DNA of 64,000 bases from an uncultured Elusimicrobia bacterium (lineage in GTDB: Bacteria > Elusimicrobiota > Elusimicrobia > 2-01-FULL-59-12): NCBI GenBank assembly GCA_963702895.1, contig OY969767.1, positions 1,408,001 to 1,472,000 of the forward strand. Direction: 5' to 3'. The position numbers were made by a program, and so were the translations under genes. This document shows positions 1 through 19,876 of this stretch, in pieces. The notes below the pieces were generated by a model. That model was not told the origin of the DNA. It saw only the letters and a program-made list of their open reading frames with translations, and searched no databases. Numbering within the stretch: the first letter of the stretch is position 1; every line of letters begins with the position of its first letter.

Positions 1-972
1 GGGTCTGTCAAGCTGGGCGGCACTAAATTCTATGTTTACAGCAGTCTTTTTCTTGACCGATATTCCGAAGTGGTCTACCACCACCGGAGGGCTGGTCTCT
101 TTCAAAGTAGCCCGGGAGCGTTTCTAGCAACATCCTCGCAGCCACCCCAAACGGTGAGGCTGACCCCCTACGACGCAGCGCGAGTTCTTTCCAAAATTGT
201 CGCCGTCCTGGTTCATTTTTATGATCCGGAAAAACGCACCATGCTGGGCGGAGTTGATGTGCCTGCCGGAGATTTCAACTTCCCGGATTCCGCGTTCCTG
301 GATTTCGAGCCGCGAACAGCCACCGTCATTGACACAGACCAACCGGTGAAACTGATCGCCTGGCGGTCCATCGCCCATGGGGTCGACCCAGCAGCATTTA
401 TTGATTACGTCCTGAGCCTGCGCTATTTGAATTCCAATCCCAGGCTCATTGATTTTGACAGCAACCTCAAAATCGGTGTCCTTGCAGGATTGCGAAGCGG
501 GCTGATTGCGCGGTACGGATACGAGGAAGGCCAGCGAATACTAACACGCTGGTTCCAGGCGTATGCTGATGCCGTTGATCAGGACCGGTTTATAGAAAAT
601 GGATTTTTCCAACTTGATGCGCTGCACGGATTCCTGGAGCAGCTCACGGCTCCCAACTCCGGGAAAGCCGGCCCTCGACCCGAGCCGGCGGTTCGCTCTT
701 CCCGCGCCGGCAAGCTTATCGGCATCCTCTTGATCGCTGGTGCCGCGGCTGCCGCACGTCACGCTGTCCCGGGAATCATCGACATCGGCGCGGGTTCCGA
801 TTTGATCGGCCGGATTGCCGGGACAGACCTGTTCGCTGGCTCGGCAGTTACTCAGGCCGGCGGCTTGGGCGTGGCGTTGGGCTTGCTCATGGCTTATGGC
901 CTGGGCGCGCTGAGCCGCCGCTTGGCAAAGAACCATCCCGCTCGTCAACGGGCCTTGGGGCGGGCGGCATGA
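1..972 (+). CDS. 3' end of a probably giant membrane-anchored multidomain protein (5' partial; runs off window start)
   Basis: Frame is open from base 1 (GSVKLGG...) to TGA at 970-972. It ends in a hydrophobic hairpin (GKLIGILLIAGAAAAA...AVTQAGGLGVALGLLMAYGLG) and a basic tail RRLAKNHPARQRALGRAA, like the two downstream giants. Confidence 0.8.
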   Translation, partial: GSVKLGGTKFYVYSSLFLDRYSEVVYHHRRAGLFQSSPGAFLATSSQPPQTVRLTPYDAARVLSKIVAVLVHFYDPEKRTMLGGVDVPAGDFNFPDSAFLDFEPRTATVIDTDQPVKLIAWRSIAHGVDPAAFIDYVLSLRYLNSNPRLIDFDSNLKIGVLAGLRSGLIARYGYEEGQRILTRWFQAYADAVDQDRFIENGFFQLDALHGFLEQLTAPNSGKAGPRPEPAVRSSRAGKLIGILLIAGAAAAARHAVPGIIDIGAGSDLIGRIAGTDLFAGSAVTQAGGLGVALGLLMAYGLGALSRRLAKNHPARQRALGRAA

Positions 973-1023
973 TCCAACTCCTTGCCCGGACCCTTCGCAG
1001 AGATGCAGAAAATCCAGGTTTTT

Positions 1024-1182
1024 ATGCATAGGACCATCCGAAGATCCGCTGCCGTCCTTTTGATTGTCTGCTTGGTGGTCGATCCGGCAACGGCGGCCGC
1101 TTTTTCGAGCAGCCCCCCCCTCTTGCCGCGGCCGTTGGCCAAAAGGTGCCCTCCCATTCCGCGTTTGAAACCCAAGCCCTGA
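1024..1182 (+). CDS. Out-of-frame N-terminal signal-peptide fragment of the following giant gene
   Basis: ATG at 1024 is preceded by CAGGT. MHRTIRRSAAVLLIVCLVVDPATAAAF resembles the N-terminus of the 3506-aa protein (MPKSLIRIVALILVPCMLLDPSSAFA). One extra base in the C8 run at 1113-1120 fuses it to 1146..8426. Confidence 0.7.
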   Translation: MHRTIRRSAAVLLIVCLVVDPATAAAFSSSPPLLPRPLAKRCPPIPRLKPKP

Positions 1183-4100
1183 CTTTGGTCCTGGCGGCCA
1201 GCATCTTCTTCGGCGCGGCGCTCCATTCTCCCGGGCATCCGCCGGTGGCCAAGACCGTCGCGATGCTTCCGGCGGAAGATCGGACCCGCTCCCTGGGCGC
1301 CAGGCGAAAACGCAGGCCCCGGGGTCCGCGTTCTGCGGACGATGTTGCGAGGGCTCGTCCCCAACGGGTCAGATCAACAGCGGCAGATTTTGTGAGGCAA
1401 CAAGCCGCTGCCGGTCGCCTCGCCGAACTCCCCTATCGTCACAAGCTGATACTGACGGAACGATTCATCAAAGGGACATCTACGAAGAGGTTTGCTGTTC
1501 TTCATGACATGACAGTAACGGCGGTCATAAGCGCAACCAGAACAGCCTTATTGGAATTGCGTCGATTGGTCAAGCCCGCCGCAGTTGAGCCCGCAGGATC
1601 TGGAGATAACGGTCGCGCCGCACCCGCGCCTTCGGTCACGCACGCAGCAGACGCTGGAAACGCTGCCGGAACATCTCTTCCGGCAATTTCTCAGGATCAG
1701 CAATCCATCCTCGTCATATACCCTAACCTGAAACTCCTCCGCATCATGCATCCACCTGTCAAATCTGCATTGGATGATAACGGGCAGGACAGCCTGAGCC
1801 AGTTGACCGTACCTCAAGACCCTGAGCTTTTGGACAAATTGGGCATCGATCCTACAGAGCTTCACATCGTCATTGCCGGATCAACAGTGGATGTGCTGAA
1901 GATCCCCTCCAGCGATTGGTGGGTTTCTCACGACCCTCAAGTAGAGCAAGTCAAATTTCTTTGGATTCTGGTGCGCTCCTTGACCAACGAAAAGGGTTTG
2001 GTCGTGATCTCCCCGTGGAGTGATATCACCGATGCTCGCACGCAACTTCAAGCACTGAAAAAGGCTTATTCCTTGACGGGGCGAATAGAACGCTCCCCGC
2101 AAAATGACTATCCGACGCGCGACAAAGACGTCATCGTACGGCGGCGGGTGCGAGTCCTGGCCGTTGGGCCTGACTCGGACGCACCGTCGGAAACCGCGTT
2201 TCAACTCTTGAGAGTCAACACGAATCCAAAGTTGAAAGAAAAGGCAGATTTGGACTGGAAAGTCATCCAAACCCTCCAGACCTTCCAGGGAGACAGGCTC
2301 TCAGAGTTATGGGATGTGCTGAAGGCTCAAAAGATCCAATGCGATCTGGACAGCTTAAGGGCCAGCTTAAAGCGTATCACGACTCTCACAAATGCTGCAC
2401 CTAATGAGATTCAAAGGAGCAGGGAGTTTGATCGGGGCCCAAAGAGGCAGAGGACCCGCTTGCCCGCACAGAAACCGCTGATCTTTAAATCGGACTTGTC
2501 GGAAGAAGCCCTTGCTGCCTACACCGAAAAGGTTCCGGTTTTCGAGCGTCAGATTACGTACCAAGAGTTTGTGACACAGAACTATGACCCCGATCGCCGC
2601 TTGGAGGAGATTACACGTCAACTTCCTGGGTGGAACTCCCCTGATCGTGTTTCCATCCCGATACTTGTTAACCATCTTCTGAAGAATGCATTTTTCCCGT
2701 TTCCGGACCGGTCCAATGACCGGCAAGCTCACGTGTCCATGGAAATCAGCATGCTTGAGCCGTCGGATCCAGAAGAGCCCAGGGTCGTGAATATCCGCAT
2801 CCGTCAACCTTCGAGCACGCAGGCGGATTGGAATCGGTTGGAAGTCAATCATCGTGGATGGGTGAATCATGATCTCTTTTATTTCGCTCGCCCCGAATTG
2901 CGCGGCGACGAAGGCGCTCTGAGACCCGCTGGTCCTTCAAATCCAGCCGGAACAGGTCATGGGCTTTTGTTAGTCGCCCGGGTCTTGGCTGAGACACCTG
3001 CCTTATTGAAATTCACGCGCAGTTCCGATCCTCCATACTCCTTACAAACCGATCTGTACATCGCGTTAAGGGACCGCGGGACGCCCCGCCCGAACGTCTC
3101 GGCCGGCAGACTGGCGATCTGGCTCCCCTTCCTGCTTGTCGCGGCCGCCGCAGCACAGATCGTGCTAGGCCACTTCTTGCCGGAAGCCGGTCAGCCGGCC
3201 TTGCCTGTCCTGCAGGCCGGCTTCTCGAGCATTCTCGGGCTGGGAGCATTGCTGACAGCGGCCTTTCAGCCGCGATACGCCCCGGAAGGCGGCGGGTCAG
3301 GCTCCGGAGATAGCGCACCGGCCAGCGGTGTTGCCGCAACGGACGTCGTGAGCAAGCTGCAAATATATGGCGTCCCGGTTGAAACGGATTCGCGCGGTAC
3401 TTACGTGTCCCCGTCGCAAATGCCCCAGGCACCCTGGGTGATGGACCGCATGCGGGATCCGGAACAAGGAGCCCTCTATCCCATCCATGATATCCCCTCC
3501 CTGACGCTGAGTTTTCCACTGCATGAGCTCCCGGCACTTTCCAGGGACAGCCTTTCGATAAACTCAAGCGGTGTGTTCCTCGGCTTCGTAAATGAACTGG
3601 ATCATCCTGTGGCCATTAAAGTTTTGAACCGAGATCAGGGAGATACGGAACTCATGAACGCTCAAATCCTTGGCCGGATTGGGGGCAACCCCGCTTTCTA
3701 CGGCGTGATTCGCCTCTCCGACGGAGGGCTGGCCTATGCCATGCAGGCGGTTCGCTGCCTCCCCCTGGCCGAAAGCCTCGATTCGCAAGACAAGCAGTAC
3801 TTGGCTGAACGTGAGCTCCTGAAAAAACGCGCGATGACCCTGGCCGGCATATCGCTGATCGCATTTCGCAGAACACCGGAAGGCCACGCCATCGGCATCG
3901 ACGCGGGGGATGCCGGCGTCGTCGATGCAATAACCTACGGCCGTTACATCGCTGAACGGACCGCGGCCGCCCCCAAACGGAACGTCTGGATGCCGATCCT
4001 GATCGCCGTGAGCGCGGCCGCGCACATGGCGCTGGAGCACCTTCAATCTTCGATTCTTGGGTTTGGTCTGCTCAACGGACCGATCGACATGGCCGGGTTA

Positions 4101-7100
4101 GATTGGTTCGCCGAAGCGATGGTCTCTCAGGCGGGCGGGCCGGCGATCGCGCTGGGCTTTCTCGCTTGTGCTTTGTTTCAGAGGCTATGGGCGCCGGCTG
4201 ATCGCGGGTACGGCTCGGGCGACACCAGCCCTACCACTACACCAGCCGAGAATGCCACTTCGCCTGCCCCGACCTTCCGGTCGGCCGGGGAATTGTTCGG
4301 AAGCACTGTTCTCGACAGGCACCCGGGTGCCGCGTTGGGTGATCCGGCGCCGGAAGCAACCCCCTCGCCAGGATACACCCGGCCTTTGGACCAAGCCACG
4401 TTGGATCGGGTGGCCGCTCTTTTGGAACGCCGGGGACTTGGTTTTCTGCGACGCGTTGTGGGCATCACCAGGGTCCAAGTGACGGAAAAGCACGCTGCTC
4501 TTTATCTGATTAGGTCCACCATCCAACACCTTCTATTCACGAAGTCGATTTTCCAGGAAATTATCGTTCCGGATTTCGAGACCAACAAGATGCTCACGAG
4601 GATCCTCGCCCGCCTCCATGAACTGTTCGACCCTGTGACTCTGCTCAACAGCTTGTCGCAAACGGATGTCTATCAGGACTTGCCCGAACCGATCCGCCAG
4701 CGCTTGGCGGAGGCGCGCAAGCAGTTACCGCCTTCAAGAACGATGTCGGAGTCGAATCAAGACACGCTCCGGCTCATCGTCACAATCGGACTCTTGCACG
4801 AGCTCGGCAGGGTCATCTGGGATTGGATGCGACAGCTGGGGGATGATCCGCCAGGCATTGACGAGGAGGAACTGGCTGCCGACAAGCTGAACGAGTGGAG
4901 ACGACTGGCAGACGCGGCGGACCCGGACCTCTTGTGGGTCCGCGCCGCACTCAACGCGTACGGGCCGGGCCGACGCGAAGATGGCAGCAACACTTTTCCC
5001 GCCCAGCTCTTTGCCGAAAAGTTCGCCGTGTGGGCGTATCCGCCATTGTCCCGTTACTTTGGCGTGAAGCTTTCCGAAAAAGAGACCCAATTCTTTGACG
5101 AGCTTGCCATTTTCCTTCAAGCCACGACGGCGCAGCCCGGCCCCATTGTGCCGGCCGGCGTGTCAGACTTCTCGGTTGACATATTCATCGCCGGCGTGGT
5201 GCTGGATTCCCCCGAGGGGGAGAAGGTCGCAGCGGCGAGCAAGGCGTATCATGCGGCCAAGGAGGTCGTGACGCGATTACAGAATCAACACCGTTCCAAA
5301 GGTCACTCACCTATTCACGGGGACAGAGACCTCGAGGAAAGGACTCTTGTCGCCCGTACCCGGGACATGCAAACACGAGAGCGTGAACTGCGCGAGGCTT
5401 TGGCCGCTGCCGCCCATTCGGAGCAACCGCATTACTTCAATGGCGTGCTGAACGCGCTGGTGAGGTTGTTTGTCGCCGGCCAATTGCCCGCGGACGACCA
5501 CACGTTCGAAGACTTTCTGCGGCAGAACCGGGAGGTCAAAGAGAGCCAGGATGCGTGGATCCAGGATCACCGGGACAGCGAAGAGGGCGTCTTCAGCCTT
5601 AAGACATTACGGTTCGTTGCGTGGAAAGCCGTTCATGCAGCTCTATTGACGAAACTGCATCGGGATAATGGAGAGGCCATGTGGCACGCCCTGCAAAGAG
5701 TCGAGCAAAGGCTTAAGGCGTTACCGAAAAAGGAACGAAGCGAGCTCATCAAAGACAAAGCATTCATTGAAGGTGTGAAGAGCTATGCCCGCAAGGCTGG
5801 CGCCGATGTGCACGCAGAGTGGAACAGTACCTCTCAGGAAGGCATCGCCGGCGTGGTCATAGGACCCTCCCAGACCAACCGATCAGCTGTCGCGAGGAGC
5901 GACGCGGCCCCCGCCGCTGGCGATACGGCAGGCGATGAGAAGGTCAGCATCTCTCTGGATGGGGCCGCCACCCTAAGGACCCGCTCTAGCGCGCTCGCCA
6001 TTCAAGATCTGTTGCACCCTGCCATTCCCATCCGTGTGATGAACGACGAAGCGGGACGGCTGGTCTCCGGTCGAACACAACTCTGGACGGTCTGGGACAC
6101 TCCATTGGATAAGTTTGAGACCGATCTCGACTTTCATATTTTGACGTATCTCAAGACTCTTTTGGAACGTTATCCGGGCCGCCGGATCACGGTCGTGGAT
6201 TGGGGGTGCGGATCGGGGAAGGCGATCAGCGAACTTGCCCGCCTAGCCAAAGAGTTGAGCCCCAACCTCCGACTCATCGGTTATTCGGACCAGATTTACC
6301 GTGATTGGAATGAGGCTCCGGAGAATGTCACTTTCATTCTGGACACAGCAGACCAGCTGCCTGGTTATTTCAATGATGGAGACATTGACCTCGTCGTCAG
6401 TCATCACGGATTCTCCAAGCTCGGGGCGGACTATATTGGGCACCTGCGCCAGATGCACGGCCGAATGGCACCCCATGGAATCATTCGCCATCACAATGCG
6501 GGCTGGAGCATCAGAATCCATCAGGCACTTCCCGAGTACAGCATCCGATACTTTCCCTCGAAATGGCGGCGTCATGTGATTGAATTTGCCCCACTCCTGG
6601 TTCATTTAGACCCCGCACTCGCGTTGGACCAAGAGGCCCGGAGAGGAGAAAAGCACGCTTCTCCTACCCCAAAGGCAAATGAGACTCAGACTCAGCCCGC
6701 GCCCTTTCTTCTGCAGGCGATTGAACACCATCAGCCAGACGACACGTTTCCCCTTATCCATCTTCGCTCCAGCAAGACGAAGGAACCTTTCCAAATACGA
6801 CTTCGGCAATGGAATCCTTTGGATTTTAGTATTGAAGCTTCGGGCCGCCCCATCGGGGAGCTCAGGCTGAAACGGCTGTCCAATGCATTGGAGCTCAGCA
6901 GGATTCAACTGTATGAAAGATATGAACGCCGCGGTATTTCGGACGCCGTCATCCAGTGGCTTTCCGGTCAATTGGATGAGCGGCACCCCGCGCTCGAGCT
7001 CTCCACCCGCAAAGCGAATGTGCGGTCCAGTCTCGTGCGCCATTTCAGCGACGTGCAAATACGAACCCACGCGGGATACGTGCCCTTATCAGATCTTACA

Positions 7101-8426
7101 GGCCGGCTCCAGTTCGGCTTCAAGCGCCTTCGACGCTTCCGCGCCATGCAGCCAAAACAGCCAATTGACGAACCATCGGTTGCCACGCCGACATCCGACA
7201 TCAGCCTCAAGACCACCAGCATTTTTGTCGCAGGGATCCTGCAGGCCCCCCTGTGGGGGTATGGTCTGAGCCATATTCTTAGCGGGACTCCGGGTCTTTC
7301 CATGGGACACCTGCTCATTGGCGCAGGGTGGTCTTCGCTTCCCATCGCGACAGCTCTTTTTCTGACTGGCGGCTTTCTGGCGGCCGTGATTCCACTATCC
7401 CCTCCGAATCCTGCGGACAAGGTCCGCCTGTTGGGCTCTCAAGGGAAATGGCCGGGGGATGCGCTCCTTGAGGAGCTGGTCCGACTCGTGCAAAAAAAGC
7501 CGTCTATGAAGCAGCAAGATATTCAGTGGAGGGGTTACCGGATCACCGAGATCCTTTGGCAAATTCTCGATCAGCACCTGGGTTTTGACGGCCACACCAT
7601 TATCTACCCGGCCGGCGGGGCTGATGGATTGCCATCACGCTTTGCGGACACGATTGTGCTCAATCGCGACAGACTGGAGAATCAAGCACGCGAGACTTTC
7701 AGTCTGCCCAAGCCTGGGACACACCGTCTCACCTATCTCACGCTGGACGCGGCCAGTCCTGCCAATTACAACCAAGTCCGCTCCGACATCAAAACCCCGC
7801 AAACAACGTTACTGCTCAAGGGTCTCGAATGGATGCTCCCAACATCGAAGTTCTTTGTTCGGCGTTTGCGCGCGATTTGTAATGTCTTGCAACCGAATCG
7901 GGTGATCATCCTGCGCCGTGAGGATGCCGCTGCCGTGGTGCCTGTTCTTGCCGGCCTGGGCTATCGAGAGCGGACGGATTGGATTGATCGGACGCGCAAG
8001 AGAGTTCTTGAAGCGATCTTTAACTATATGTCCATATCGGTGCTGGATGAGGTTCAAACGCCATCCGGCCCCACGTTCATGATCCCCAATACAATCAGAC
8101 TGTTTGAAAGGAATAAGGGTCAACAGACCATGGCCGATCGAACGCCGCGGCATCGGGCCAATCGAAAGACAATCGCGCTTTTGGCCGCGGCGACACTCGA
8201 CGGCGGGCTCTTGGCCTGGGGCTGGGGCCACGTTCTTGACGGAGCGCAAATGCCGCTCGTCACCCAGGCCGCGTTCCTGGCGATGCCTACGTTCTCGTTG
8301 AGCACCGCCGCAGCGCTCTTCCTGGCCGGCGGCGCGCTTGTGTCGATCATAACGAAACAGACTCGTATATCGAGAGAATTTAACCGCCCATCTCGCACAC
8401 CCAGCCCGTTTCGCCAAGCCGCTTAA
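1146..8426 (+). CDS. Giant multidomain membrane protein A (sigma70-r4-like HTH, GHKL-like, kinase-like, zincin-like, SAM-methyltransferase, GNAT domains separated by TM hairpins); true start probably 1024
   Basis: 2426-aa ORF. Motifs: LAELPYRHKLILTERF..G.S (HTH); NHLLKNA and GTGHGL (GHKL); VAIKVL and IGIDAGDA (kinase-like); HELGR and LFAEKF; VVDWGCGSG (SAM); ERYERRGIS (GNAT). Four hydrophobic hairpins lie at about 3105-3267, 3981-4190, 7212-7393 and 8166-8351. Confidence 0.85.
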   Translation: MPSHSAFETQALTLVLAASIFFGAALHSPGHPPVAKTVAMLPAEDRTRSLGARRKRRPRGPRSADDVARARPQRVRSTAADFVRQQAAAGRLAELPYRHKLILTERFIKGTSTKRFAVLHDMTVTAVISATRTALLELRRLVKPAAVEPAGSGDNGRAAPAPSVTHAADAGNAAGTSLPAISQDQQSILVIYPNLKLLRIMHPPVKSALDDNGQDSLSQLTVPQDPELLDKLGIDPTELHIVIAGSTVDVLKIPSSDWWVSHDPQVEQVKFLWILVRSLTNEKGLVVISPWSDITDARTQLQALKKAYSLTGRIERSPQNDYPTRDKDVIVRRRVRVLAVGPDSDAPSETAFQLLRVNTNPKLKEKADLDWKVIQTLQTFQGDRLSELWDVLKAQKIQCDLDSLRASLKRITTLTNAAPNEIQRSREFDRGPKRQRTRLPAQKPLIFKSDLSEEALAAYTEKVPVFERQITYQEFVTQNYDPDRRLEEITRQLPGWNSPDRVSIPILVNHLLKNAFFPFPDRSNDRQAHVSMEISMLEPSDPEEPRVVNIRIRQPSSTQADWNRLEVNHRGWVNHDLFYFARPELRGDEGALRPAGPSNPAGTGHGLLLVARVLAETPALLKFTRSSDPPYSLQTDLYIALRDRGTPRPNVSAGRLAIWLPFLLVAAAAAQIVLGHFLPEAGQPALPVLQAGFSSILGLGALLTAAFQPRYAPEGGGSGSGDSAPASGVAATDVVSKLQIYGVPVETDSRGTYVSPSQMPQAPWVMDRMRDPEQGALYPIHDIPSLTLSFPLHELPALSRDSLSINSSGVFLGFVNELDHPVAIKVLNRDQGDTELMNAQILGRIGGNPAFYGVIRLSDGGLAYAMQAVRCLPLAESLDSQDKQYLAERELLKKRAMTLAGISLIAFRRTPEGHAIGIDAGDAGVVDAITYGRYIAERTAAAPKRNVWMPILIAVSAAAHMALEHLQSSILGFGLLNGPIDMAGLDWFAEAMVSQAGGPAIALGFLACALFQRLWAPADRGYGSGDTSPTTTPAENATSPAPTFRSAGELFGSTVLDRHPGAALGDPAPEATPSPGYTRPLDQATLDRVAALLERRGLGFLRRVVGITRVQVTEKHAALYLIRSTIQHLLFTKSIFQEIIVPDFETNKMLTRILARLHELFDPVTLLNSLSQTDVYQDLPEPIRQRLAEARKQLPPSRTMSESNQDTLRLIVTIGLLHELGRVIWDWMRQLGDDPPGIDEEELAADKLNEWRRLADAADPDLLWVRAALNAYGPGRREDGSNTFPAQLFAEKFAVWAYPPLSRYFGVKLSEKETQFFDELAIFLQATTAQPGPIVPAGVSDFSVDIFIAGVVLDSPEGEKVAAASKAYHAAKEVVTRLQNQHRSKGHSPIHGDRDLEERTLVARTRDMQTRERELREALAAAAHSEQPHYFNGVLNALVRLFVAGQLPADDHTFEDFLRQNREVKESQDAWIQDHRDSEEGVFSLKTLRFVAWKAVHAALLTKLHRDNGEAMWHALQRVEQRLKALPKKERSELIKDKAFIEGVKSYARKAGADVHAEWNSTSQEGIAGVVIGPSQTNRSAVARSDAAPAAGDTAGDEKVSISLDGAATLRTRSSALAIQDLLHPAIPIRVMNDEAGRLVSGRTQLWTVWDTPLDKFETDLDFHILTYLKTLLERYPGRRITVVDWGCGSGKAISELARLAKELSPNLRLIGYSDQIYRDWNEAPENVTFILDTADQLPGYFNDGDIDLVVSHHGFSKLGADYIGHLRQMHGRMAPHGIIRHHNAGWSIRIHQALPEYSIRYFPSKWRRHVIEFAPLLVHLDPALALDQEARRGEKHASPTPKANETQTQPAPFLLQAIEHHQPDDTFPLIHLRSSKTKEPFQIRLRQWNPLDFSIEASGRPIGELRLKRLSNALELSRIQLYERYERRGISDAVIQWLSGQLDERHPALELSTRKANVRSSLVRHFSDVQIRTHAGYVPLSDLTGRLQFGFKRLRRFRAMQPKQPIDEPSVATPTSDISLKTTSIFVAGILQAPLWGYGLSHILSGTPGLSMGHLLIGAGWSSLPIATALFLTGGFLAAVIPLSPPNPADKVRLLGSQGKWPGDALLEELVRLVQKKPSMKQQDIQWRGYRITEILWQILDQHLGFDGHTIIYPAGGADGLPSRFADTIVLNRDRLENQARETFSLPKPGTHRLTYLTLDAASPANYNQVRSDIKTPQTTLLLKGLEWMLPTSKFFVRRLRAICNVLQPNRVIILRREDAAAVVPVLAGLGYRERTDWIDRTRKRVLEAIFNYMSISVLDEVQTPSGPTFMIPNTIRLFERNKGQQTMADRTPRHRANRKTIALLAAATLDGGLLAWGWGHVLDGAQMPLVTQAAFLAMPTFSLSTAAALFLAGGALVSIITKQTRISREFNRPSRTPSPFRQAA

Positions 8427-8491
8427 ATCACCCCCATCTTCGACTTCTCCGTAGCCGCACAGCCCGCACGAAACGCTTCAACAGGAAAAGA

Positions 8492-8522: not shown

Positions 8523-8526
8523 GTCT

Positions 8527-8742: not shown

Positions 8743-8751
8743 GGACGAACC

Positions 8752-12300: not shown

Positions 12301-15300
12301 AAAGGGAAGTAAAGCCGGAACCTTGCCATTTGAACTTTATCCCGGTGCCGATGCAGGGGCTCGGAAGCCTGCATCCCCTCGCCCGGCCCGGCCGGCCACC
12401 CAGCTGCCCGAAGCGGTCCCGGTCTCTGACCCCTCGGTGTCGCTCGACCTCGCCCCGGCTGCCGCGGTTTCCCTGGCACCGGCTGCCGCGACCGCCGTCT
12501 CGCCGCCTAGCCCTATCGCCGATTCGCCGCCTCCATCCACCGATGGCTCGCCGACCCGCCGGCCCGCCGACCCGCCGACTCGCCGCGTCGCCGCATTGGA
12601 CGTCGACCCCGCCGCGCCGGCGACAAGCCCGTTCCGGCCGTGGCGGTGGATCGCCGCCGGCATCGCAGTCGCCGCGGTCGTTGCCGCCCTGCATTTCGGC
12701 CCGACAACGTTCAGACAATTCCGGGACGGGTCTTCAACGCCGCGCCCGTCGTCGTCCGCGAGTCAGGACTACGTCTATGAGCCCGGGCCGGCGTCCGAAA
12801 CCACACACGACCGCGTCCGTACCATGATGGGACCGTACTACGGCATGGATCTTCAGGGACATCGGGCGGAATCCGGAGAACCCCGGGCCGATGCGGGAGC
12901 TCCCTCGCAGCCCCCCGCGCTGAACCCATTGGAGAACATTGCAGACATACAGCTGAGCGGTCATGCCGCGAATGAAATGCTGATGATGGCATTCGCGAAC
13001 ACGATGGAAGACGGCGGCGTTTTATCCCACGCGGGACGAATTGACTTCGTGCCCTCGGATAAACTCACGAAAGAACGCACCAAAGTCACGCTGATTTTGC
13101 CCGCATTGCGCCAGGGCCAGGCGATGCGCATGCCCATTCCCCTCAACCGCCGGGTCGATCCCCTGAGCATCTCGGACCCACGCCTCTGGGTTGACGCCCA
13201 GGGCTGGCTCACGGCCCGGGAGGATACCCCCCCGCTCACCGTGACCTTTGATTGGATCACGACCTTGGAAAACGGCTCCTTCCGGGCGAACTTCCCCGTG
13301 ACACCCTGGATGGAGCGGGAATTCCAAGATATTCCGCCGGAGGTTCGAAGGGACCTTGACCGCGCTCTAGGGCTCGATGAACATGGACGCGCGAGCGTCC
13401 TGGCCGGCGTGGTTGAGAAATACCTCGGCTACAACCAGCAACAGAGAGTTCAACTTCGTCGGGGGACGTGGAATCGTTTCATTGGAGAAGTTCTTGAGAC
13501 GGAAGGGCGGTTTAAGGGCGATTGCGACGTCTTGGCCACCGTCGGTTGGATCTGGGCCAGGTATCTTGGACTTGATGCTGTCATGGCAGCCGGCCGGAAC
13601 AACAGGGGCGGGGGCTCACGGTCCGGAACGAACATGTCCCACGCCGTCATGGTCATCCGGATCGGCGGCAAGTGGCTCGAATTCGACCCTTCCAAATGGG
13701 CGCCGCCCGTCGCCAGTGAAAGTCTTGCGCCTGACCAGCCCTCCGCCGACGGGAAACGGCTGGATGCCGGTCCCATGCCGACACCGCTCAAGCCCTCACC
13801 CCAGTTTGTCGCTACCTTTATCCCGAACCCCGAGCTTTTCCCGCCACCTCGAACGGGACCACCCGCCAGTGCAAAGCCTACCGCGGAGCGACCCGTTCCG
13901 CCCGGCGTGGGTCAGGAATCACCGAAGACCGAACCCGGCGCCAAAGTGGGGCCTGCCGAGAAGCCCGCGAGCGCCAAGAAACCCGCGAGCACCGAAACCC
14001 CCGCCAAGCGGCCCAGCACCTACCGCGTTCAGCCCGGCCAGAGTTTCAACGATATCGCGCGCTTGATATTCACGGATGAGAAATATCCCTACCCGGCGGC
14101 CTTGGATCTGATCGTGGACAACATCAACCACACGATCGGCGGCGACCCCGACCGCCTGATGGCAGGAGTCGACCTCATCGTACGGCCTACGAGCGCGTAT
14201 TCTAGTCCTGTAGCAGGGATGGATTGGGAATGGGGCCTCCATCGAAAATATGGACGGGCCTGGTATGAGCGGCGCCATGCCTTGCTGCAGCAGGCGCTGA
14301 CCCGGGAAAGTCAACGCCCGTCACCCTATACTTCGGAATACCAATCGGAACTGCGGGCGCGCGCGGGCGCCCGGTGGCGCTCGATCGAATTCGACATCCT
14401 TGCCATCAACGACATCCTGAATTGGATCGAACAACGCTTCGGGGTCAGATTCCAACGAGTTGACCTTATGCAGGCGATGGCTCAAACCATGGAGCGCAGT
14501 CAAATCATCTTGAAGCTGACGTCAACCGGCCGTTCAAAATCCGGAACGACCGCCGCCCCGAAGCAGACGGCCGACGGGGAATCGGCGAAACGGAGAAGCG
14601 GTGAACCGGCGGACTTGCCTCTGGGCCATTCCACGAAAACAAGTCCGGACGACCGACTCATCGCTCCGAAGAGCATCACTCCCCTCATGGCAGGCCTGCT
14701 CCAGGCTCCGCTGTGGTGGTGGGGGCTGAGCCACCTGCTGGGCGGGCCGCAGACACCGCTCCTGACCCAGGCCGCCTTCCTGGCCCTTCCGGCCATCCCG
14801 CTCGGCGCCGCCCTGGCCCTGTTCGCGGCGGGGGTCGTGGTGGCGGGGATGGCGGTTTTGGGGAGAAAGGTTCTGAAGCAAACCAGACCCGAGCGCATTG
14901 AAATACAACTGACCCCAATGGACAGACCCTATCAATTGGATCTCGTCAAGTCAGGTGGCAGCCATTCCCGGGGAGATTTGATTCGTCTCGATTTGGAGGA
15001 AATGCGGCTCGAAGCGCACAAGACCGGCGTACCCGGCCGTATGGCTGTTCGTCGAGTCTACCTCGAAGAGCTTGGACACGCTGTTGACGCGCGCCGCTTC
15101 GTCAGAGAAGGGCGGCCTCTTAGCGGCTTTGTAAGACCCAACTCACCTTTACAGACGTATTGGGACCACCACAATCCCAAAGACCCTGAGCATGACATGA
15201 AGGAGCTAGTGGCGGGTCTCAGGCACATCCTGTTTGCGCAAACCCCCTTTGAGGCGGAAAGAGCCCTCATAAAATTATCGCAGGTAGCCAATGATCCGAC

Positions 15301-18300
15301 CGACAGCCACTATTGGGGCGGACGCTTCGCCCTTGAGAGGATTCTCCAACGCATCGACGCAGGGCGAGGCGAGAGGGTGGATGATCTGACAAACTATTTG
15401 CCACGCCTCATCTATGGGTCAGGGGCGTTCCCGGACCTGCCTACGCTGCGTTTACTGGCGAAAGAATTATGTATCGAAAACCTGCGGGACTATCCGCCTG
15501 ACGGAGACGGTCTCCCTGCGCTGAGCGCGGATGGGTCCCGGATCGACGTTCCGGATGAGACCCAACAAGCTTTGGCAACGGTGTGGCGCGCATTCGAGAC
15601 TTACACGGGAAAATCATTGGCCGATGACGCGGTCCCCACGCCGGAACATGTCCGACATTCACAAGCGGCGAGGAGCGGGCTGCCTGGGTTTGACCGAACG
15701 GGCCATTCTATTCATGACCCTGGTCTTGCGCAAGGGAGAAAGATGGTTGGTATGGTCATCGCCGGCCTGCTCCAGGCTCCGCTGTGGTGGTGGGGGCTGA
15801 GCCACCTGCTGGGCGGGCCGCAGACACCGCTCCTGACCCAGGCCGCGTTCCTGACGATGCCGGCCATCCCGCTCGGCGACGCCCTGATCAGCTTCGCCGT
15901 GGGCGCGGCGTGGATCGTGGTGGCGGGGATGGCGGTTTTCGGGTCAGGGGCGCCCGCTCCGGGGCAGGAAGGGGTTTCCGGTCCTGTCTCGCCGGGACCG
16001 TCTTCCAATACCGCGGCCGCCGTCCGGAGGTCCTTCGAAGCGCAGGCTCGAGTACTGGCCGGTATCCCCACCGTGACCGAATTTGAAGCTAATTTCCCAG
16101 GCACGATACGTCGCGTCGATCTTGGACCAGGCTATTCGAATTCGTTACGAGCCGGAGAAGTTCCTAAGATCGATTTCACGCGTCGAATACAGGGAAGAGT
16201 CTACCAGCCACCACCGGCGTCGGAAAACGATTGGCCGAAATGGCTGGACCTGTACGTCGAAAAAGACGCCCAGGCGCTTGTCGTGAGGCTGATGAGAGCG
16301 GGCTTTCGCCCCGATTATTCCAACGCTTACGGAGATGGCCTGAAAGGAGTGTGGTGGACCCGAACCAGCCACCATACTGACACCGTCGGTTCCAACGCAA
16401 CAAATACGTTCTTTACTCCATTGACAGAGGAGGATTATCTCGCGCCGGACCAAGGCGAACATCCGGGCGAGACTCCTAACGACCCAGGAGCGCCTGTTAC
16501 ACCAACAGAACCTCCCTTGAATTGGATCGAAAAGAATGACGCAGCCCTCGAGCAACTGAGTCCCATCGACCGTCAGCTTGTCGATGCCATTCTCCAAGGC
16601 GCCTTACACGGCGATGCTGAACTGCTTGCCCAGTACCCAGAAAAAGTTTATATCGATCCTATTGAAGTTGGACGCTCGGATGAAGGCCGAACAATCTTTC
16701 TCAAGCTTGAAACGAGCATCCTAGTAGAAGGCCGCTACCTCACACACCTGCGATTCAAAGGCGCTCGCCCCCATAAAGGGCGCTACGGGCAGGGGAACCA
16801 AGTCGCCTATCTCGGACGTCGGGGCCATGTCGAGCGGCCTGTAACGGTCGATCAGGAAGGGCGATTGACGGTTTTTGCCGGTCAACTTGACCCCATGGGA
16901 GGTATGCGCCGTATCGGGGCTGCCAACGAATACGCTTTGATGCAAAGCGAAAACAGCCAAGGCGCCTATCGCACGGACGTGCCGATCGGCTGGGGCATCT
17001 TCCCTGGATTTGCATTTGAAAACGAACCTCTGGGCTGGGCGATCGCAGGGATGGAAGGGCCCGACGTTCGAATAAACGGGCGTCGTCAGAATCAGCTGAT
17101 CCTCCGGTCGCGCACGAACGACCCTTATGGGATGATTGAACTGTCTCAGGAACAGTCGCAACACCTCGCCAGGCTCATCGGTGAGAGCATCTGCGCTTAT
17201 CATCAAAAAGGCCGTTATCACCGCTACCCCCATTTTGGAAATATCGGCGTGGCCTACGATACTGTCACCCGTTCCATCCGTTCTGTTGTTCTGCGGGATT
17301 TGGAGACCTCCGTCCGGAAAGACAGCCTGAGCGGATCTCCGAAAGAAATTGAGAACCAAATCATTGCTTGGCGTTTCCGGGATGTGATTCGGTTGATCTA
17401 TCAGTTCTCCTTCAGACCACGGCCCAATGACCCGCTCATCGGCGCCCTCTTGCGCGGATACTTCCCGGAAGGGACTCTAAGAAATGATGATCTTCAGGCC
17501 CTGCTTGTGACCATTTGCCGTCCCAACTTTCTCGATGATTACGCATCCTTATTCTACGACGATGAGACGCAAGATCTCTCGAATTTGATCGACACTCTCG
17601 ACATCCAATCTCATCCTAATTATCAGCATCTTTGGAACGCGATCAGACAATCCATGGCGAGCCAGCCCGCCACTCCTGAAGGGAATGACGGTTCGGCGAC
17701 TCAAGAACATCCGGGTCGCATTGATCCGACGGGCTTGCGCCGCGTGCTCCCGGCAATCGCCCTCCTGGCCGCTCTTCCCTGGACCTACGGCTTCACTTCG
17801 ATCAGCGGCTCTCCCGGATCCGGCGCCGCGATCCCGCTCGGCGCCGCCCTGGCCCTGTTCGCGGCGGGGATCGCGGTCCTGATCTCAGGGAATTCCCCTC
17901 GAAAACGCAAAATACTAACTAAGGCGGCGAGCCATAAGGCAGGAAGGCAAAAGCCGGTGAGTGGCGATGCACCGGGTCCTTCGCGTCACGTTTACCCTGA
18001 CCCCGTCGTCATGGAGAAAAGTCGTTACGATCTTCCAAAGAGTTTGAAGTCCTGGTCTTGGCTCGCTCGCAACAAGGACCAACGTCAATGGCTGCGGGAC
18101 GTATTCCTGCCGAGACTCTTGGCGACTCAAAACCTCCGCGCTCCAGGACAAATCAAGGTCGTAGACCTTGGCGTAAGCACCGGAGAAGTCCTCGCCCGAA
18201 CTTACTATGAGATTTTCCAGCATCTCATAGAAAACACCTTGAAGGGAACATGGAAGGCCAGGATGGTAGGTGTTGATAGGGATGCGACCGTGCTGGCGGA

Positions 18301-19876
18301 AGCCCGTCTTCGGATAAGCGGCAAGCACCCTTTCAATGATATCTCGATCTCTGGCCCTACCATTGAAAAACCAACCCCCTACTCGGCGGCCGTGGTGGAT
18401 TTCTTAAACAGCGACCCGGCGGCCTTTCAATCCAGCGTGCAGCTGGAGCAGCTCGACATCACCGACCATGATTCGCTGGACCCCGTTTTAGACGGTGTCG
18501 ACCTGATCATGGTCAACCACGTCATGGAATATTTGCACCCGGCGGACGTAAAGCCCTTCTTGCAACACCTGTACCAGAAGGCCCCGCAAGCCTGGTTGGC
18601 CATGGAAAATGAATACAGTACTCCCGCCGAAGCTCACCACCGCCAATGGATACCTTATCAGCCGACGCATTTGCCGGGCTTTCGCCCAACGGATTCAGGA
18701 AGCAGCTCACTTCCCGGCGAGAACACACCCCGGTCAGCGGCTGTGGTCGGCATCTTCGCCAGCTGGCTCGCGCTCAGTCAGGCCGCATCCTCCGCTCACC
18801 TCCCCAGTAGGTTGGAATCCCTGCTTTCATTCTTCTATTCGATATCGCCGCTCTTTCCCTGGCTCATGCTCGCCGCGACAGCGGTCTGGCTGGCGGGCAC
18901 CTTTGTCGCGCTGAGAACTCTTTGGAGGCACCCCTCTCGGGTGCCGAGCATAAGACAGGGCGGTACGGCTTCGCCCAGCCCGGCCAGAGCGCTCACTTTT
19001 CGGTACTATTCCGAACTGACCCCCGGACAAAAAGCTGATGTAACGCTAGCTTCATTAATCAGAAGGTTAGGAGCAAGACGTGAGGTGCACGTCTACGATA
19101 CGAAACCATTGGGCAGCCGGTGGGGCCAATTGCCGATCCTCACCCGGTGGAGCCTGCGCCGTTTCACGCGTAACCTGACCCCTGATCCGACAACACTCAG
19201 ACTCGATGCTCTCGTCGCCTATCGTGGAGACATTCCCATGGGTGTTTACGCGTTCATCGATCTCGGTCCAGATCGTCAAATTGTTATGGACAACGGCATC
19301 TACATGGACGCCGACCAGAGGCAGAACGGATACGGTGGAAAACTCACGAAGGAACTCCTCAGCAGGCTGGCAGAGCGCGGGTACAGAATGTTCGTTTTGG
19401 GACCGCCTTTGGGAACGGCTGAAGCGGAGGGGCTCCGTCGGTGGCTGAGCGCTGCCCCAGGCGTTGAAACGCGGGGCAGAACAACCATCGTCCATCTCGC
19501 TAACTACCGAACAAACACCGCCAATTCCCAAGCCGCCGGCAAACCCAAAGGCAAAACAAACGATTCCGCCCCGGAAGCGGAGCCCGCTGACGCGCCGCGC
19601 GGCATAAAGCTTCGCAGTTCCGCGCTGGCCGGCGCTCTCGCCAGCGCGATCGCGCTCAGCCAGGCGCCGTTTGCCCCCCAACTGCCGGATTGGCTTTCTC
19701 CCCTCTTCAGCACGGCGAGTTCGCTGGCGCCGCTCGTTCCCTGGGTGGGGATGGCCGCCGTGATCGGTTGGCTTTTACGGCCAGCTCTGACTCGCATGCT
19801 GTTGAAGGCCCTTCCCCGCCTGCGCGGCAGTCGTTCATCCCGAGCCATCCATCATCACCTTCGAGCCGCGGCCTGA
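9356..19876 (+). CDS. Giant multidomain membrane protein B (NagB-like, SAM-MTase, transglutaminase-like, LysM, zincin-like, kinase-like, CheR-like MTase, GNAT; repeated TM hairpins)
   Basis: 3506-aa ORF with a signal-peptide-like start. Motifs: LPTGSTP, TFNMDEY, GHVAFNE and ALTMG (NagB); FLELGAGLG; GDCDVLA..SHA..W.EFDPS; YRVQPGQSF.DIA (LysM); EELGH; HFGNI and LRDLE; DLGVSTGE..NHVMEYL (CheR-like); DQRQNGYG (GNAT). Confidence 0.9.
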   Translation: MPKSLIRIVALILVPCMLLDPSSAFAELARPAAWRAPFPAGVSLASPQATHAALRLDSFPFGIQALVPPSWLSRPISWIQRASELARQASRNRFQVRWTSLAGSPFSFPVLGTDERPIRPVQFSVSQNEIGGGQDGTGQIVTTPSGSRFQVFDTPQTMAAAQAGEIAEIIHANDAAGRITILILPTGSTPIPVYHELVRLYQARQLSFRNVHTFNMDEYYPGPQAPCAWAQHPQSYRRFMDELLFSKVDIPRANIHFLNGQAADPAAEAARYEQEFRDLAPNGADLELGGVGSRGHVAFNEAVVHLTDDFLQRLTSKNREALGLSNDFALEVTAGHELAALAMILQGHWNFREGETFVRWLRARIKTTGRITEESLQKLAERLRRQRVTIGWNPDSPDAKDIQDFVNQASARFGFPIELADLRKLDDSQTHLRELALSTVVDNSVHFAEPADIPTQALTMGLGTLRHSQRTRILASTPNKIPPLEQVAAGPVSEQVPVTDVLRHPDTRFLVTQAAIPPTVRTALARTSGLVLNSQPETRNPKAESGTPAARDTKLYTHPIAVMALAWMASSHFYSWDPAGTGLLLLLTIAPLMAWQGRIFRGKSGMNTFRRLDALLRHLRGLSYARCRELLATGLDRFVPPRRKHRQREFPAIALPAAAPGNPFQLRPPTAVELAFPSRYESAVHAKFVGNDPYDDRTRAIVQAHATAAYVDLMREIFKRTGGTLRGVSFLELGAGLGAIVDVLRTRAGVDAQGIEVRREFVQFARDHGVPLIQGTLLEVPLELAGKTFQITFSRQLLDAIETTDRATEGPMPSQVTHEEELRVLATIAALTAPGGWSIHQTYSSNPIPFTDEELTQAGFQIVSMNPRRTMMVLRRLSDPPPSSPVRRPEAAEETIKPEGKKGPSLYTHPIALMALAWMASSHFYGWDPAGILPLLLLLVPLMAWGPGRYRQWMTSLSGRGPRYKAKQWERKLDEDLRRLRGKGSKAGTLPFELYPGADAGARKPASPRPARPATQLPEAVPVSDPSVSLDLAPAAAVSLAPAAATAVSPPSPIADSPPPSTDGSPTRRPADPPTRRVAALDVDPAAPATSPFRPWRWIAAGIAVAAVVAALHFGPTTFRQFRDGSSTPRPSSSASQDYVYEPGPASETTHDRVRTMMGPYYGMDLQGHRAESGEPRADAGAPSQPPALNPLENIADIQLSGHAANEMLMMAFANTMEDGGVLSHAGRIDFVPSDKLTKERTKVTLILPALRQGQAMRMPIPLNRRVDPLSISDPRLWVDAQGWLTAREDTPPLTVTFDWITTLENGSFRANFPVTPWMEREFQDIPPEVRRDLDRALGLDEHGRASVLAGVVEKYLGYNQQQRVQLRRGTWNRFIGEVLETEGRFKGDCDVLATVGWIWARYLGLDAVMAAGRNNRGGGSRSGTNMSHAVMVIRIGGKWLEFDPSKWAPPVASESLAPDQPSADGKRLDAGPMPTPLKPSPQFVATFIPNPELFPPPRTGPPASAKPTAERPVPPGVGQESPKTEPGAKVGPAEKPASAKKPASTETPAKRPSTYRVQPGQSFNDIARLIFTDEKYPYPAALDLIVDNINHTIGGDPDRLMAGVDLIVRPTSAYSSPVAGMDWEWGLHRKYGRAWYERRHALLQQALTRESQRPSPYTSEYQSELRARAGARWRSIEFDILAINDILNWIEQRFGVRFQRVDLMQAMAQTMERSQIILKLTSTGRSKSGTTAAPKQTADGESAKRRSGEPADLPLGHSTKTSPDDRLIAPKSITPLMAGLLQAPLWWWGLSHLLGGPQTPLLTQAAFLALPAIPLGAALALFAAGVVVAGMAVLGRKVLKQTRPERIEIQLTPMDRPYQLDLVKSGGSHSRGDLIRLDLEEMRLEAHKTGVPGRMAVRRVYLEELGHAVDARRFVREGRPLSGFVRPNSPLQTYWDHHNPKDPEHDMKELVAGLRHILFAQTPFEAERALIKLSQVANDPTDSHYWGGRFALERILQRIDAGRGERVDDLTNYLPRLIYGSGAFPDLPTLRLLAKELCIENLRDYPPDGDGLPALSADGSRIDVPDETQQALATVWRAFETYTGKSLADDAVPTPEHVRHSQAARSGLPGFDRTGHSIHDPGLAQGRKMVGMVIAGLLQAPLWWWGLSHLLGGPQTPLLTQAAFLTMPAIPLGDALISFAVGAAWIVVAGMAVFGSGAPAPGQEGVSGPVSPGPSSNTAAAVRRSFEAQARVLAGIPTVTEFEANFPGTIRRVDLGPGYSNSLRAGEVPKIDFTRRIQGRVYQPPPASENDWPKWLDLYVEKDAQALVVRLMRAGFRPDYSNAYGDGLKGVWWTRTSHHTDTVGSNATNTFFTPLTEEDYLAPDQGEHPGETPNDPGAPVTPTEPPLNWIEKNDAALEQLSPIDRQLVDAILQGALHGDAELLAQYPEKVYIDPIEVGRSDEGRTIFLKLETSILVEGRYLTHLRFKGARPHKGRYGQGNQVAYLGRRGHVERPVTVDQEGRLTVFAGQLDPMGGMRRIGAANEYALMQSENSQGAYRTDVPIGWGIFPGFAFENEPLGWAIAGMEGPDVRINGRRQNQLILRSRTNDPYGMIELSQEQSQHLARLIGESICAYHQKGRYHRYPHFGNIGVAYDTVTRSIRSVVLRDLETSVRKDSLSGSPKEIENQIIAWRFRDVIRLIYQFSFRPRPNDPLIGALLRGYFPEGTLRNDDLQALLVTICRPNFLDDYASLFYDDETQDLSNLIDTLDIQSHPNYQHLWNAIRQSMASQPATPEGNDGSATQEHPGRIDPTGLRRVLPAIALLAALPWTYGFTSISGSPGSGAAIPLGAALALFAAGIAVLISGNSPRKRKILTKAASHKAGRQKPVSGDAPGPSRHVYPDPVVMEKSRYDLPKSLKSWSWLARNKDQRQWLRDVFLPRLLATQNLRAPGQIKVVDLGVSTGEVLARTYYEIFQHLIENTLKGTWKARMVGVDRDATVLAEARLRISGKHPFNDISISGPTIEKPTPYSAAVVDFLNSDPAAFQSSVQLEQLDITDHDSLDPVLDGVDLIMVNHVMEYLHPADVKPFLQHLYQKAPQAWLAMENEYSTPAEAHHRQWIPYQPTHLPGFRPTDSGSSSLPGENTPRSAAVVGIFASWLALSQAASSAHLPSRLESLLSFFYSISPLFPWLMLAATAVWLAGTFVALRTLWRHPSRVPSIRQGGTASPSPARALTFRYYSELTPGQKADVTLASLIRRLGARREVHVYDTKPLGSRWGQLPILTRWSLRRFTRNLTPDPTTLRLDALVAYRGDIPMGVYAFIDLGPDRQIVMDNGIYMDADQRQNGYGGKLTKELLSRLAERGYRMFVLGPPLGTAEAEGLRRWLSAAPGVETRGRTTIVHLANYRTNTANSQAAGKPKGKTNDSAPEAEPADAPRGIKLRSSALAGALASAIALSQAPFAPQLPDWLSPLFSTASSLAPLVPWVGMAAVIGWLLRPALTRMLLKALPRLRGSRSSRAIHHHLRAAA
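11018..11096 (+). repeat. Intragenic direct repeat R1 copy 1 (encodes LYTHPIA.MALAWMASSHFY.WDPAG hairpin)
   Basis: 79 bp with 2 mismatches versus 12071-12149. Confidence 0.95.
12071..12149 (+). repeat. Intragenic direct repeat R1 copy 2
   Basis: 79 bp with 2 mismatches versus 11018-11096. Confidence 0.95.
14693..14859 (+). repeat. Intragenic direct repeat R2 copy 1 (encodes GLLQAPLWWWGLSHLLGGPQTPLLTQAAFL... hairpin)
   Basis: 14693-14775 is identical to 15764-15846 (83 bp), and similarity continues to about 14859. 14795-14833 is identical to 17831-17869. Confidence 0.95.
15764..15939 (+). repeat. Intragenic direct repeat R2 copy 2
   Basis: Matches 14693-14859. 15836-15861 also matches 8262-8287 in giant gene A with 1 mismatch. 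Confidence 0.95.
17831..17869 (+). repeat. Partial R2 copy 3 (IPLGAALALFAAG)
   Basis: 39 bp identical to 14795-14833. Confidence 0.9.

Follow-up and report, generated by a model that had tools for sequence, protein, structure and literature searches.

What kind of protein is encoded where three giant genes stand side by side, each a chain of unrelated soluble domains punctuated by pairs of hydrophobic helices, and on which side of a membrane would such domains lie? This question is raised by a 64,000-nucleotide stretch of DNA from an uncultured Elusimicrobia bacterium (assembly GCA_963702895.1, contig OY969767.1), hereafter the window, which covers C1:1408001-1472000 of a 2.72-Mb single-contig genome that is 98% complete. 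Three neighbouring open reading frames (ORFs) on the + strand, g1, g2 and g3, are involved, with the end of g1 and the whole of g2 and g3 in the first 19.9 kb of the window; these ORFs bear out an earlier note on this DNA, made from the letters alone, which had seen three co-oriented genes sharing one architecture. With moderate confidence, we consider g1, g2 and g3 to be inner-membrane-anchored multi-domain proteins of a family-restricted class. The genes are laid out as follows (aa, amino acids; HMM, hidden Markov model).

Genome C1:1402028-1408972, + strand: g1, 2314 aa, starting about 6 kb before the window.
Window 1..972, + strand: 3' end of g1, the last 323 codons, with the final soluble segment, a type-C hairpin, a basic tail ending ...GRAA and the stop; Response_reg and ICMT lie further upstream.
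Window 1027..1120, + strand: g2 leader MHRTIRRSAAVLLIVCLVVDPATAAA..., in a frame that differs from that of the g2 body (leader HMM, E 2.9e-6).
Window 1146..8426, + strand: g2 body, 2426 aa from the GTG chosen by the ORF finder; the database model runs from ATG 1746 and has 2226 aa.
Window 9356..19876, + strand: g3, 3506 aa, with the leader MPKSLIRIVALILVPCMLLDPSSAFA.

We located the connectors between the soluble domains by a hydropathy scan (Kyte-Doolittle) as pairs of hydrophobic helices. This yielded 14 two-helix cassettes (three in g1, four in g2 and seven in g3), 12 of them inside the window and two in upstream g1. The earlier note had placed about 12 hydrophobic hairpins here, and all 12 are helix pairs in the scan, which further returned a single transmembrane (TM) helix in g3 that was absent from the earlier list. 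Each hairpin below was found both by hydropathy and by a cassette HMM; the single helix comes from the hydropathy scan.

715..912, + strand: g1 terminal hairpin, type C.
3111..3254, + strand: g2 hairpin, type B.
3981..4175, + strand: g2 hairpin, type C.
7200..7397, + strand: g2 hairpin, type A.
8169..8351, + strand: g2 terminal hairpin, type A, followed by a basic tail at 8352-8423 ending ...RQAA.
11030..11155, + strand: g3 hairpin D1, with an 84-nt DNA repeat, 95% to D2.
12068..12196, + strand: g3 hairpin D2, sharing the DNA repeat with D1.
12638..12712 (aa 1095-1119), + strand: g3 single TM helix.
14693..14860, + strand: g3 hairpin A1, with a 171-nt DNA repeat, 85% to A2.
15746..15937, + strand: g3 hairpin A2, sharing the DNA repeat with A1.
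17744..17884, + strand: g3 hairpin A3, a mosaic sharing a 50-nt DNA stretch in helix 2 with A1 (94%).
18734..18913, + strand: g3 hairpin E1.
19622..19777, + strand: g3 terminal hairpin E2, followed by a basic tail at 19778-19873 ending ...LRAAA.

When aligned, the 14 cassettes follow a common plan of basic residues, helix 1 (frequently with S/G-H or S-Q at its end), an uncharged turn rich in P and G, helix 2, and basic or proline-rich residues. The five subtypes A-E are labels assigned in the present analysis, and neighbouring cassettes of the same gene are the most alike. The HMM built from the 14 cassettes recovered all of them (i-E 4e-8 to 4e-22), so that the hairpin does recur as a homologous standard connector throughout g1-g3, as had been supposed. 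Beyond these genes, the HMM found no other match among 22,192 stop-to-stop ORFs of at least 60 aa in the genome and none in ten other genomes of the same GTDB family. One weak match (1.8e-4) came from a set of 400 further genomes of the phylum, for each of which no more than 13 candidates were scored, and a search of 1.84 billion representative proteins returned g1, g2, g3 and one tandem-repeat ORF only. This last match, P0005 (2912 aa), was dropped as spurious, being a translated tandem repeat. The many giant paralogues with the same connectors, which had been named beforehand as support for the design, are thus not seen, and the cassette is confined to g1-g3 in the genome, family, phylum and database searches. 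By these profile searches the cassette family is nearly private to the three genes; a diverged A-like cassette in one relative from the GTDB family (i-E 0.005, in a small search) indicates that it is fast-evolving rather than strictly unique. The Pro/Ser/Gly linkers described earlier hold in part, since these residues are enriched around the cassettes, but modestly so (27.7% in the 40-aa flanks vs 21.3% overall).

The connectors are repeated as DNA as well as protein. All five direct-repeat families of at least 30 nt in window positions 1-20000 have copies at cassettes, and the strongest four consist of cassette copies only. The repeat at 14685/15756 extends over 171 nt (85%), of which about 100 nt form a near-identical core, that at 11013/12066 over 84 nt (95%), and that at 14792/17828 over 50 nt (94%), the last being common to the second helix only. 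No similarity was detected in the cargo between cassette copies. Near-identical connectors beside dissimilar cargo point to recent duplication or gene conversion that would have been restricted to the connectors.

We then turned to the two ends of the proteins. The leaders of g1 and g3 fit the consensus [K/R]-x-[LIV]-[IV]-[AS]-L-L-L-V-P-C-L-L-x-D-P-x-x-A-x-A, with FxxQAL following 20-60 residues on, and in ten aligned leaders a basic n-region precedes a hydrophobic core, with small residues at both -3 and -1; by this pattern they are predicted to be of the Sec type. Of the claim that both complete genes begin with a leader, the part on g3 stands; for g2 it had to be corrected, as the true leader starts at ATG 1027 in the other frame and joins the body frame at a run of eight cytosines (C8, 1113-1120). 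A leader profile built from ten N-termini matched 14 loci in the genome, one of which is this g2 leader at window 1027-1120. The same profile matched 1-27 loci each in nine of ten other genomes of the GTDB family, none of 30 genomes from other families of the class, and three of 300 further genomes drawn from the whole phylum. Searched against 5.8e9 proteins (133-2000 aa), it retrieved one protein, from the same genome, which is weak evidence. That the leader class is restricted to one GTDB family of Elusimicrobiota is part of our preferred reading, which as a whole we hold with moderate confidence.

Of 19 leader proteins scanned in relatives, 12 have Pfam matches at E<=1e-4. Their cargo includes triosephosphate isomerase (TIM; 2e-159) with phosphoglycerate kinase (PGK), ClpB-type AAA, NagB with a receiver domain, UDP-glucose dehydrogenase, PCMT, PrmA, HAD, HATPase_c and a metallo-beta-lactamase fold, and two further proteins of the genome itself carry histidine phosphatase, sigma-70 region 4, aldo-keto reductase and HTH. 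One of the family relatives (L080, G008:C96:2556-9501) encodes a 2115-aa leader protein in which TIM (2e-159, two stretches) and PGK are accompanied by TM pairs and an end reading ...LRSA. A 12,935-aa ORF of the genome has the same leader and ends ...RSAA.

We think that the frame break in g2 is a homopolymer error of the assembly, because rpoD in the same window is broken alike at a G-run. The rpoD gene (window 21362-23136, - strand) is split into two ORFs whose frames meet in a G-run near 21975-21980, where one missing base would restore the conserved region, and here an assembly error is most likely. Other frame breaks in the same genome therefore call for caution. Alternatively, the C8 run could be a slippage-prone tract that switches g2 on and off. 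One public run (X1, contigs) matches the region, with 9% of sampled words, and may be the source sample of the genome; no RNA run is listed. Of its 16 pieces on window 1-20000, 14 are at least 99% alike and no indel is reported, coverage of the C-run at 1113-1120 by any piece being unconfirmed.

At the other end, all three proteins finish as the earlier note had described, with a basic Ala-Ala tail after the terminal cassette (g1 ...RQRALGRAA, g2 ...SPFRQAA, g3 ...HHHLRAAA), and the tails are 19-32 aa long. Among the intact leader ORFs of the same genome, 9/12 end in AA and 12/12 in AA or SA, against 35 AA ends in 1508 background ORFs of at least 300 aa (Fisher 1e-12, paralogues not being independent). 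We also compared 20 large leader ORFs from relatives, picked by size before their ends were seen; three run off contigs, and the complete ones end in AA in 11/17 cases and in [A/S]A in 14/17. Terminal Ala codons and stop codons vary between genes, and the AA signal therefore lies at the protein level. Among all ORFs of at least 1200 aa in the genome, 12/45 end in AA (e.g., C1:93151-100263, 222873-228947, 749878-788685 and 1099279-1107171). A distinct class of ends occurs at genome C1:2189054-2232109, where about 12 ORFs of 1000-1650 aa have the common C-terminus ...GGAKKTGKVVVIK.

The tmRNA tag of the organism is GEPELALAA, and the genome encodes ClpX, two FtsH and an S41 protease. As far as the consulted part of the study goes, C-terminal degrons read by ClpXP in E. 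coli depend critically on a terminal Ala-Ala, which does not suffice alone (PMC10862746), and membrane-associated anti-sigma factors with an ssrA-like degron are described for M. tuberculosis in the available text of a preprint (10.1101/491043). By analogy, we infer that the Ala-Ala tails may serve as degrons. Like the ssrA tag and ssrA-like degrons, they have an Ala-Ala C-terminus, often with L/F/V and R before it, and would be cytoplasmic by the charge rule; unlike the tag, they are genome-encoded on intact giants, and AA is often preceded by polar residues (Q, R, S, T).

The charge pattern around the cassettes offers a clue to their orientation. Lysine and arginine make up 78/420 residues (18.6%) in the 15 positions on either side of the cassettes vs 2/258 (0.8%) in the inter-helix loops, the protein average being 10-12%. 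Under the positive-inside rule, K/R-rich segments lie on the cytoplasmic side. Such K/R-rich flanks and K/R-poor loops would place the soluble domains in the cytoplasm, an orientation that the charges suggest, and a cytoplasmic side would also suit the cofactors that the recognised domains require, as well as the receiver domain of g1. The mean hydropathy over 18 aa (Kyte-Doolittle) is 1.32-2.48 for the second helices and 0.89-2.32 for the first, and the pairs are candidate transmembrane hairpins.

We next compared the soluble segments with known families (bits are given against the model cut-off; SAM, S-adenosylmethionine).

9815..10945, + strand: g3 NagB/6-phosphogluconolactonase-like domain with an insertion (PF01182 5.5e-17; TIGR00502 5e-46).
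6186..6488, + strand: g2 class I SAM-methyltransferase (PF08241, Methyltransf_11, 23.1-26.9 bits vs 21.2; VDWGCGSG motif).
11498..11893, + strand: g3 SAM-methyltransferase, weak (PF13489 1.2e-5; MetW 17.2 bits in the whole protein, 21.2 vs 21 as a cut segment).
18068..18658, + strand: g3 methyltransferase-like segment, weak (PF08242 3.9e-4; CheR 1.3e-3; below cut-off).
13481..13690, + strand: g3 transglutaminase-core-like segment (PF01841 19.4 bits vs 23, below cut-off; Cys, His and Asp by eye).
19208..19396, + strand: g3 GNAT-like segment (PF00583 18.7 bits vs 20.7, below cut-off).
3405..3977, + strand: VAIK-containing orphan domain of g2 (a counterpart in a same-genus genome, set in another context, is 39% identical; unmatched in Pfam and PDB).

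The best-supported domain of g3 scores 62.8-69 bits with PF01182 (Glucosamine_iso) against a cut-off of 27, and 157 bits with TIGR00502 against an equivalog cut-off of 236.9; it is therefore a NagB-family member and not an equivalog. In g1, Response_reg (receiver) and an ICMT-like membrane methyltransferase are above the Pfam cut-offs, in the part upstream of the window, and a transglutaminase-core-like segment with Cys, His and Asp can be discerned by eye. Thus, from the list of cargo families proposed in the earlier note, the SAM-methyltransferase is retained, GNAT and transglutaminase persist as weak matches below cut-off, and kinase, zincin and LysM are not supported. The supposed kinase of g2 has VAIK at aa 822, but neither a catalytic loop (H/YxDxxxxN) nor DFG, and no Pfam or PDB match. 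The look-alikes of this segment by language model are unnamed viral clusters together with one weak kinase-named cluster at rank 28, which serves as a lead only, and the longer class of the 5.8e9 proteins gave no match at E<=0.01. Neither HExxH nor HxxEH, nor a zincin Pfam match, occurs in g1, g2 or g3, and no LysM family matched g3 aa 1541-1775 at E<=1. Three orphan segments searched with phmmer against PDB sequences returned nothing below E 0.1. Any function shared by the enzymes is putative. Stand-alone TIM and NagB genes are present in the genome alongside the giant-embedded copies, and the embedded domains are therefore extra, diverged copies. A second TIM domain (3.3e-60) lies at genome C1:1725844-1731762 (- strand) within a 1972-aa TM-bearing ORF ending ...FNAAA, and the normal stand-alone tpiA is at 2378266-2378991. 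At aa ~117-145 of g1 (L023), outside the window and about 115 residues past the leader, a twin-arginine-like motif MSRRDLLK is followed by a hydrophobic stretch and AQA, which by its sequence resembles the beginning of a Tat-exported protein that was captured.

The domains also appear to be exchangeable. The g2 protein matches the DNA of four of 40 relatives, by one single domain each. The best match, in a same-genus genome, reaches 39% identity over g2 aa 754-944 (8e-34); it is preceded by 500 unrelated residues with no hairpin ahead, and the alignment stops at TAAAPK, where the g2 hairpin starts. A g2 domain thus recurs in a new context with its match ending at the hairpin junction, and the beads are therefore movable units without a fixed domain order, in agreement with the modularity proposed earlier. 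No homologue of fixed domain order, the finding that had been named as contrary to this design, was found at full length: of the 2254 candidates (1928-6136 aa) scored when 5.8 billion proteins were searched with g3, the sole match was g3 itself.

How would such a protein be made? In the reading that we prefer, a Sec-type leader (basic n-region, a core like IALLLVPCLL, DP and an AxA-like site) would carry the nascent chain to the membrane, and each cassette of about 60 aa would insert as a helical hairpin with its uncharged loop across the membrane and its K/R-rich flanks in the cytoplasm. The last hairpin would leave the basic Ala-Ala tail of 19-32 aa, tmRNA-tag-like and a possible ClpXP or FtsH handle for turnover, and recombination or gene conversion would copy and homogenise cassettes within and between g1, g2 and g3. 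A bolder and rather doubtful extension is that Elusimicrobiota of one GTDB family possess a code of their own, consisting of the private leader with the nearby FxxQAL and the ssrA-like AA end, for making and disposing of membrane-stapled enzyme arrays, the cassette being an in-frame, recombination-spread 'membrane staple' that tethers duplicated cytoplasmic enzymes. Several observations weigh against this inner-membrane, cytoplasm-facing reading. Several first helices are weakly hydrophobic (0.89-1.5), so some cassettes may be re-entrant or interfacial, and the AlphaFold2 helices at the hairpins reach a predicted local distance difference test (pLDDT) of just 50-66. The leader is cleavable in appearance and g3 has no second TM ahead of the NagB-like domain; moreover, a strict count that includes the unpaired g3 TM flips the first 1094 residues to the side opposite the rest. 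The charge bias is weaker elsewhere in the class, at 14.2% vs 4.3% for eight pairs of the same genome and 16.1% vs 11.0% for 12 pairs in relatives. For eleven of the 21 soluble segments, Pfam gave nothing at E<=1 beyond chance-level matches, and AlphaFold2 single-sequence models of g2 aa 640-1030 and g3 aa 1765-2205 are poor (mean pLDDT 37.2 and 45.2). The degron role leans on E. coli rules, and several tails read ...RQAA or ...GRAA with a polar residue before AA; in the part consulted of the E. coli screen, polar residues ahead of AA weaken the tag (PMC10862746).

The chains might instead face outward, with the leader cleaved, the soluble domains periplasmic or on the surface, and the hairpins looping briefly through the inner membrane. 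The basic n-region, hydrophobic core and AxA-like sites of the leader favour this topology, as do the lack of a second TM after the leader in g3 and the envelope substrates that transglutaminase-like segments could have; signal peptide plus TM is also a frequent predictor outcome for the Omnitrophota giants, called for 39% of 916 long proteins (46% TM-only) in the accessible part of a preprint (10.64898/2026.06.07.730766). Outward-facing domains would predict the opposite charge pattern to the K/R-rich flanks and K/R-free loops, and cytoplasmic partners are needed by the receiver domain and by domains that depend on SAM, acetyl-CoA or sugar phosphates, as well as by the TIM/PGK, ClpB-AAA and sigma region 4 domains of class members. 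The authors who described such giants themselves doubt extracellular calls for glycolytic domains, in the text available (10.1101/2023.11.21.568195), and we regard an outward orientation as unlikely. If the proteins were polyproteins, as the earlier note had suggested, cuts at or near the connectors, made either by a host protease or by the transglutaminase-like cysteine-protease folds of the chains themselves, would free membrane-anchored enzymes. The Cys/His/Asp segments of g3 and, by eye, g1 and the P/S/G-richer cassette flanks are consistent with this, and the Omnitrophota giants have been suggested to be cleaved into smaller polypeptides, according to the consulted part of the same preprint (10.1101/2023.11.21.568195). 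No common cleavage motif is visible by eye in the aligned cassettes and flanks, g2 has no protease-like domain, and the g3 transglutaminase match is below cut-off. A signal-peptidase cut after helix 2 was dropped as a candidate; basic residues directly follow most second helices and oppose such cuts. We find the polyprotein interpretation improbable.

An array of effectors, the other function suggested earlier, would have the proteins or pieces of them delivered to a host or prey, the hairpins entering the target membrane in the manner of chlamydial Inc proteins, which have one bilobed hydrophobic domain and depend on type III secretion (T3SS). The cassettes do resemble these in their two hydrophobic helices with a short loop, their length of 40-65 aa, their moderate hydrophobicity and their junction to soluble domains, and the enzyme types are also known among effectors; unlike Inc proteins, they number 3-7 hairpins per protein. 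The 98%-complete single-contig genome yielded no FHIPEP (T3SS), VirB4 (type IV) or VipB (type VI) family member and PADLOC gave no match, and the cargo resembles duplicated housekeeping enzymes, which makes effector delivery very improbable. We consider it equally remote that the genes are evolutionary debris or an assembly artefact, that is, functionless fused fragments or chimeric ORFs. The domains are highly diverged, g2 and rpoD contain homopolymer frame breaks, and g1 is directly preceded by an IS256-type transposase; yet the frames stay open over 6.9, 7.3 and 10.5 kb (g1, g2 and g3) at 57% G+C, the leader, tail and cassette charge pattern are conserved, and the public-run contigs agree with the assembly in the 14 pieces noted above.

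C-terminal tripartite sorting signals (LPXTG, PEP-CTERM) consist of a motif, a TM helix and a basic cluster. The proteins described here likewise have a C-terminal TM element with basic residues and an N-terminal signal-like leader; unlike these signals, which are shorter, their tails measure 19-32 aa, and conservation concerns the terminal AA rather than a pre-helix motif. A scan of the C-termini with the NCBIfam models, covering g2, g3 and the final 323 residues of g1, gave no match at E<=0.1. The closer parallel is with the Archaeovorins, Omnitrophota giants in which, according to the available part of the preprint, numerous TM regions lie between divergent methyltransferase, GNAT, sugar-phosphate-isomerase and glycolytic domains, with signal peptides and uncertain topology; Elusimicrobiota proteins of at least 10,000 aa are also noted there (10.1101/2023.11.21.568195). 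Like the Archaeovorins, g1-g3 are single chains with a signal-peptide-like start, hairpins and further TM segments spread among diverged enzyme domains, and large unannotated parts; triosephosphate-isomerase-type domains also occur on both sides of the comparison. They differ in size (2314-3506 aa vs >30,000 aa), in phylum (Elusimicrobiota vs Omnitrophota), and in having a homologous two-helix cassette repeated at the DNA level, a conserved leader of their own and an [A/S]A end. Most Archaeovorins contain a divergent SecA DEAD domain, as the same partial text states (10.1101/2023.11.21.568195), whereas g1-g3 have no SecA_DEAD match; no Pfam match to the SecA family was obtained at E<=0.1 for g2 and g3 or at E<=0.05 for full-length g1.

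Two preprints, as far as their accessible text goes, confirm that giant multi-enzyme proteins are known from Omnitrophota (10.1101/2023.11.21.568195; 10.64898/2026.06.07.730766). The TM-studded giant multi-enzyme kind is thus already in print for that phylum, a neighbour of Elusimicrobiota, in the parts consulted, and g1-g3 are a smaller relative. The earlier statement that no named family has this design therefore has to be qualified: the cassette family is nearly private, but membrane-studded multi-enzyme giants as such are already described as Archaeovorins. The word 'hairpin' is absent from both preprints, in which an Ala-Ala end and a shared leader were not searched for. Our impression, formed without a dedicated literature search, is that the leader-tail pairing and the cassette gene conversion are unreported.

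If the preferred reading of membrane-anchored, cytoplasm-facing chains is true, g1-g3 would provide a mid-sized, workable model for a question that comes from the Omnitrophota giants, namely how bacteria pass such long multi-enzyme chains through a membrane, and why they do so. At 2-3.5 kaa, single genes or bead-plus-hairpin units could be cloned and their topology mapped. Near-identical cassette DNA beside unrelated cargo shows a possible route by which such architectures grow, and the leader and Ala-Ala end offer two short testable signals for biogenesis and turnover, neither of them seen in the available portions of the two giant-protein preprints.

The genes flanking this locus include mraW and a PBP on the 5' side of g1, and rpoD, dnaG, dnaK/dnaJ, lepA and others on the 3' side of g3. 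The LepA protein has matches of 54-61% identity in many phyla, those at 61% including Elusimicrobia and Endomicrobiales MAGs, which agrees with the phylum label without proving it. The transposase directly 5' of g1 (L022:12608-13855, genome C1:1400608-1401855) belongs to the IS256/Mutator family, of which about 11 copies of 420-422 aa are found across the genome, with ends reading ...LEVAA. No Rfam family reached its gathering score anywhere in the window. The g2-g3 gap (window 8427-9355, 930 bp) holds a sole long ORF (8428-9003, - strand, 191 aa) without a Pfam match, and promoter and terminator scans of 8300-9500 gave results close to shuffle expectation. In the gap between g3 and rpoD, a tandem array of about six copies of a 21-nt repeat occupies window 20136-20258, with 77-81% matches.

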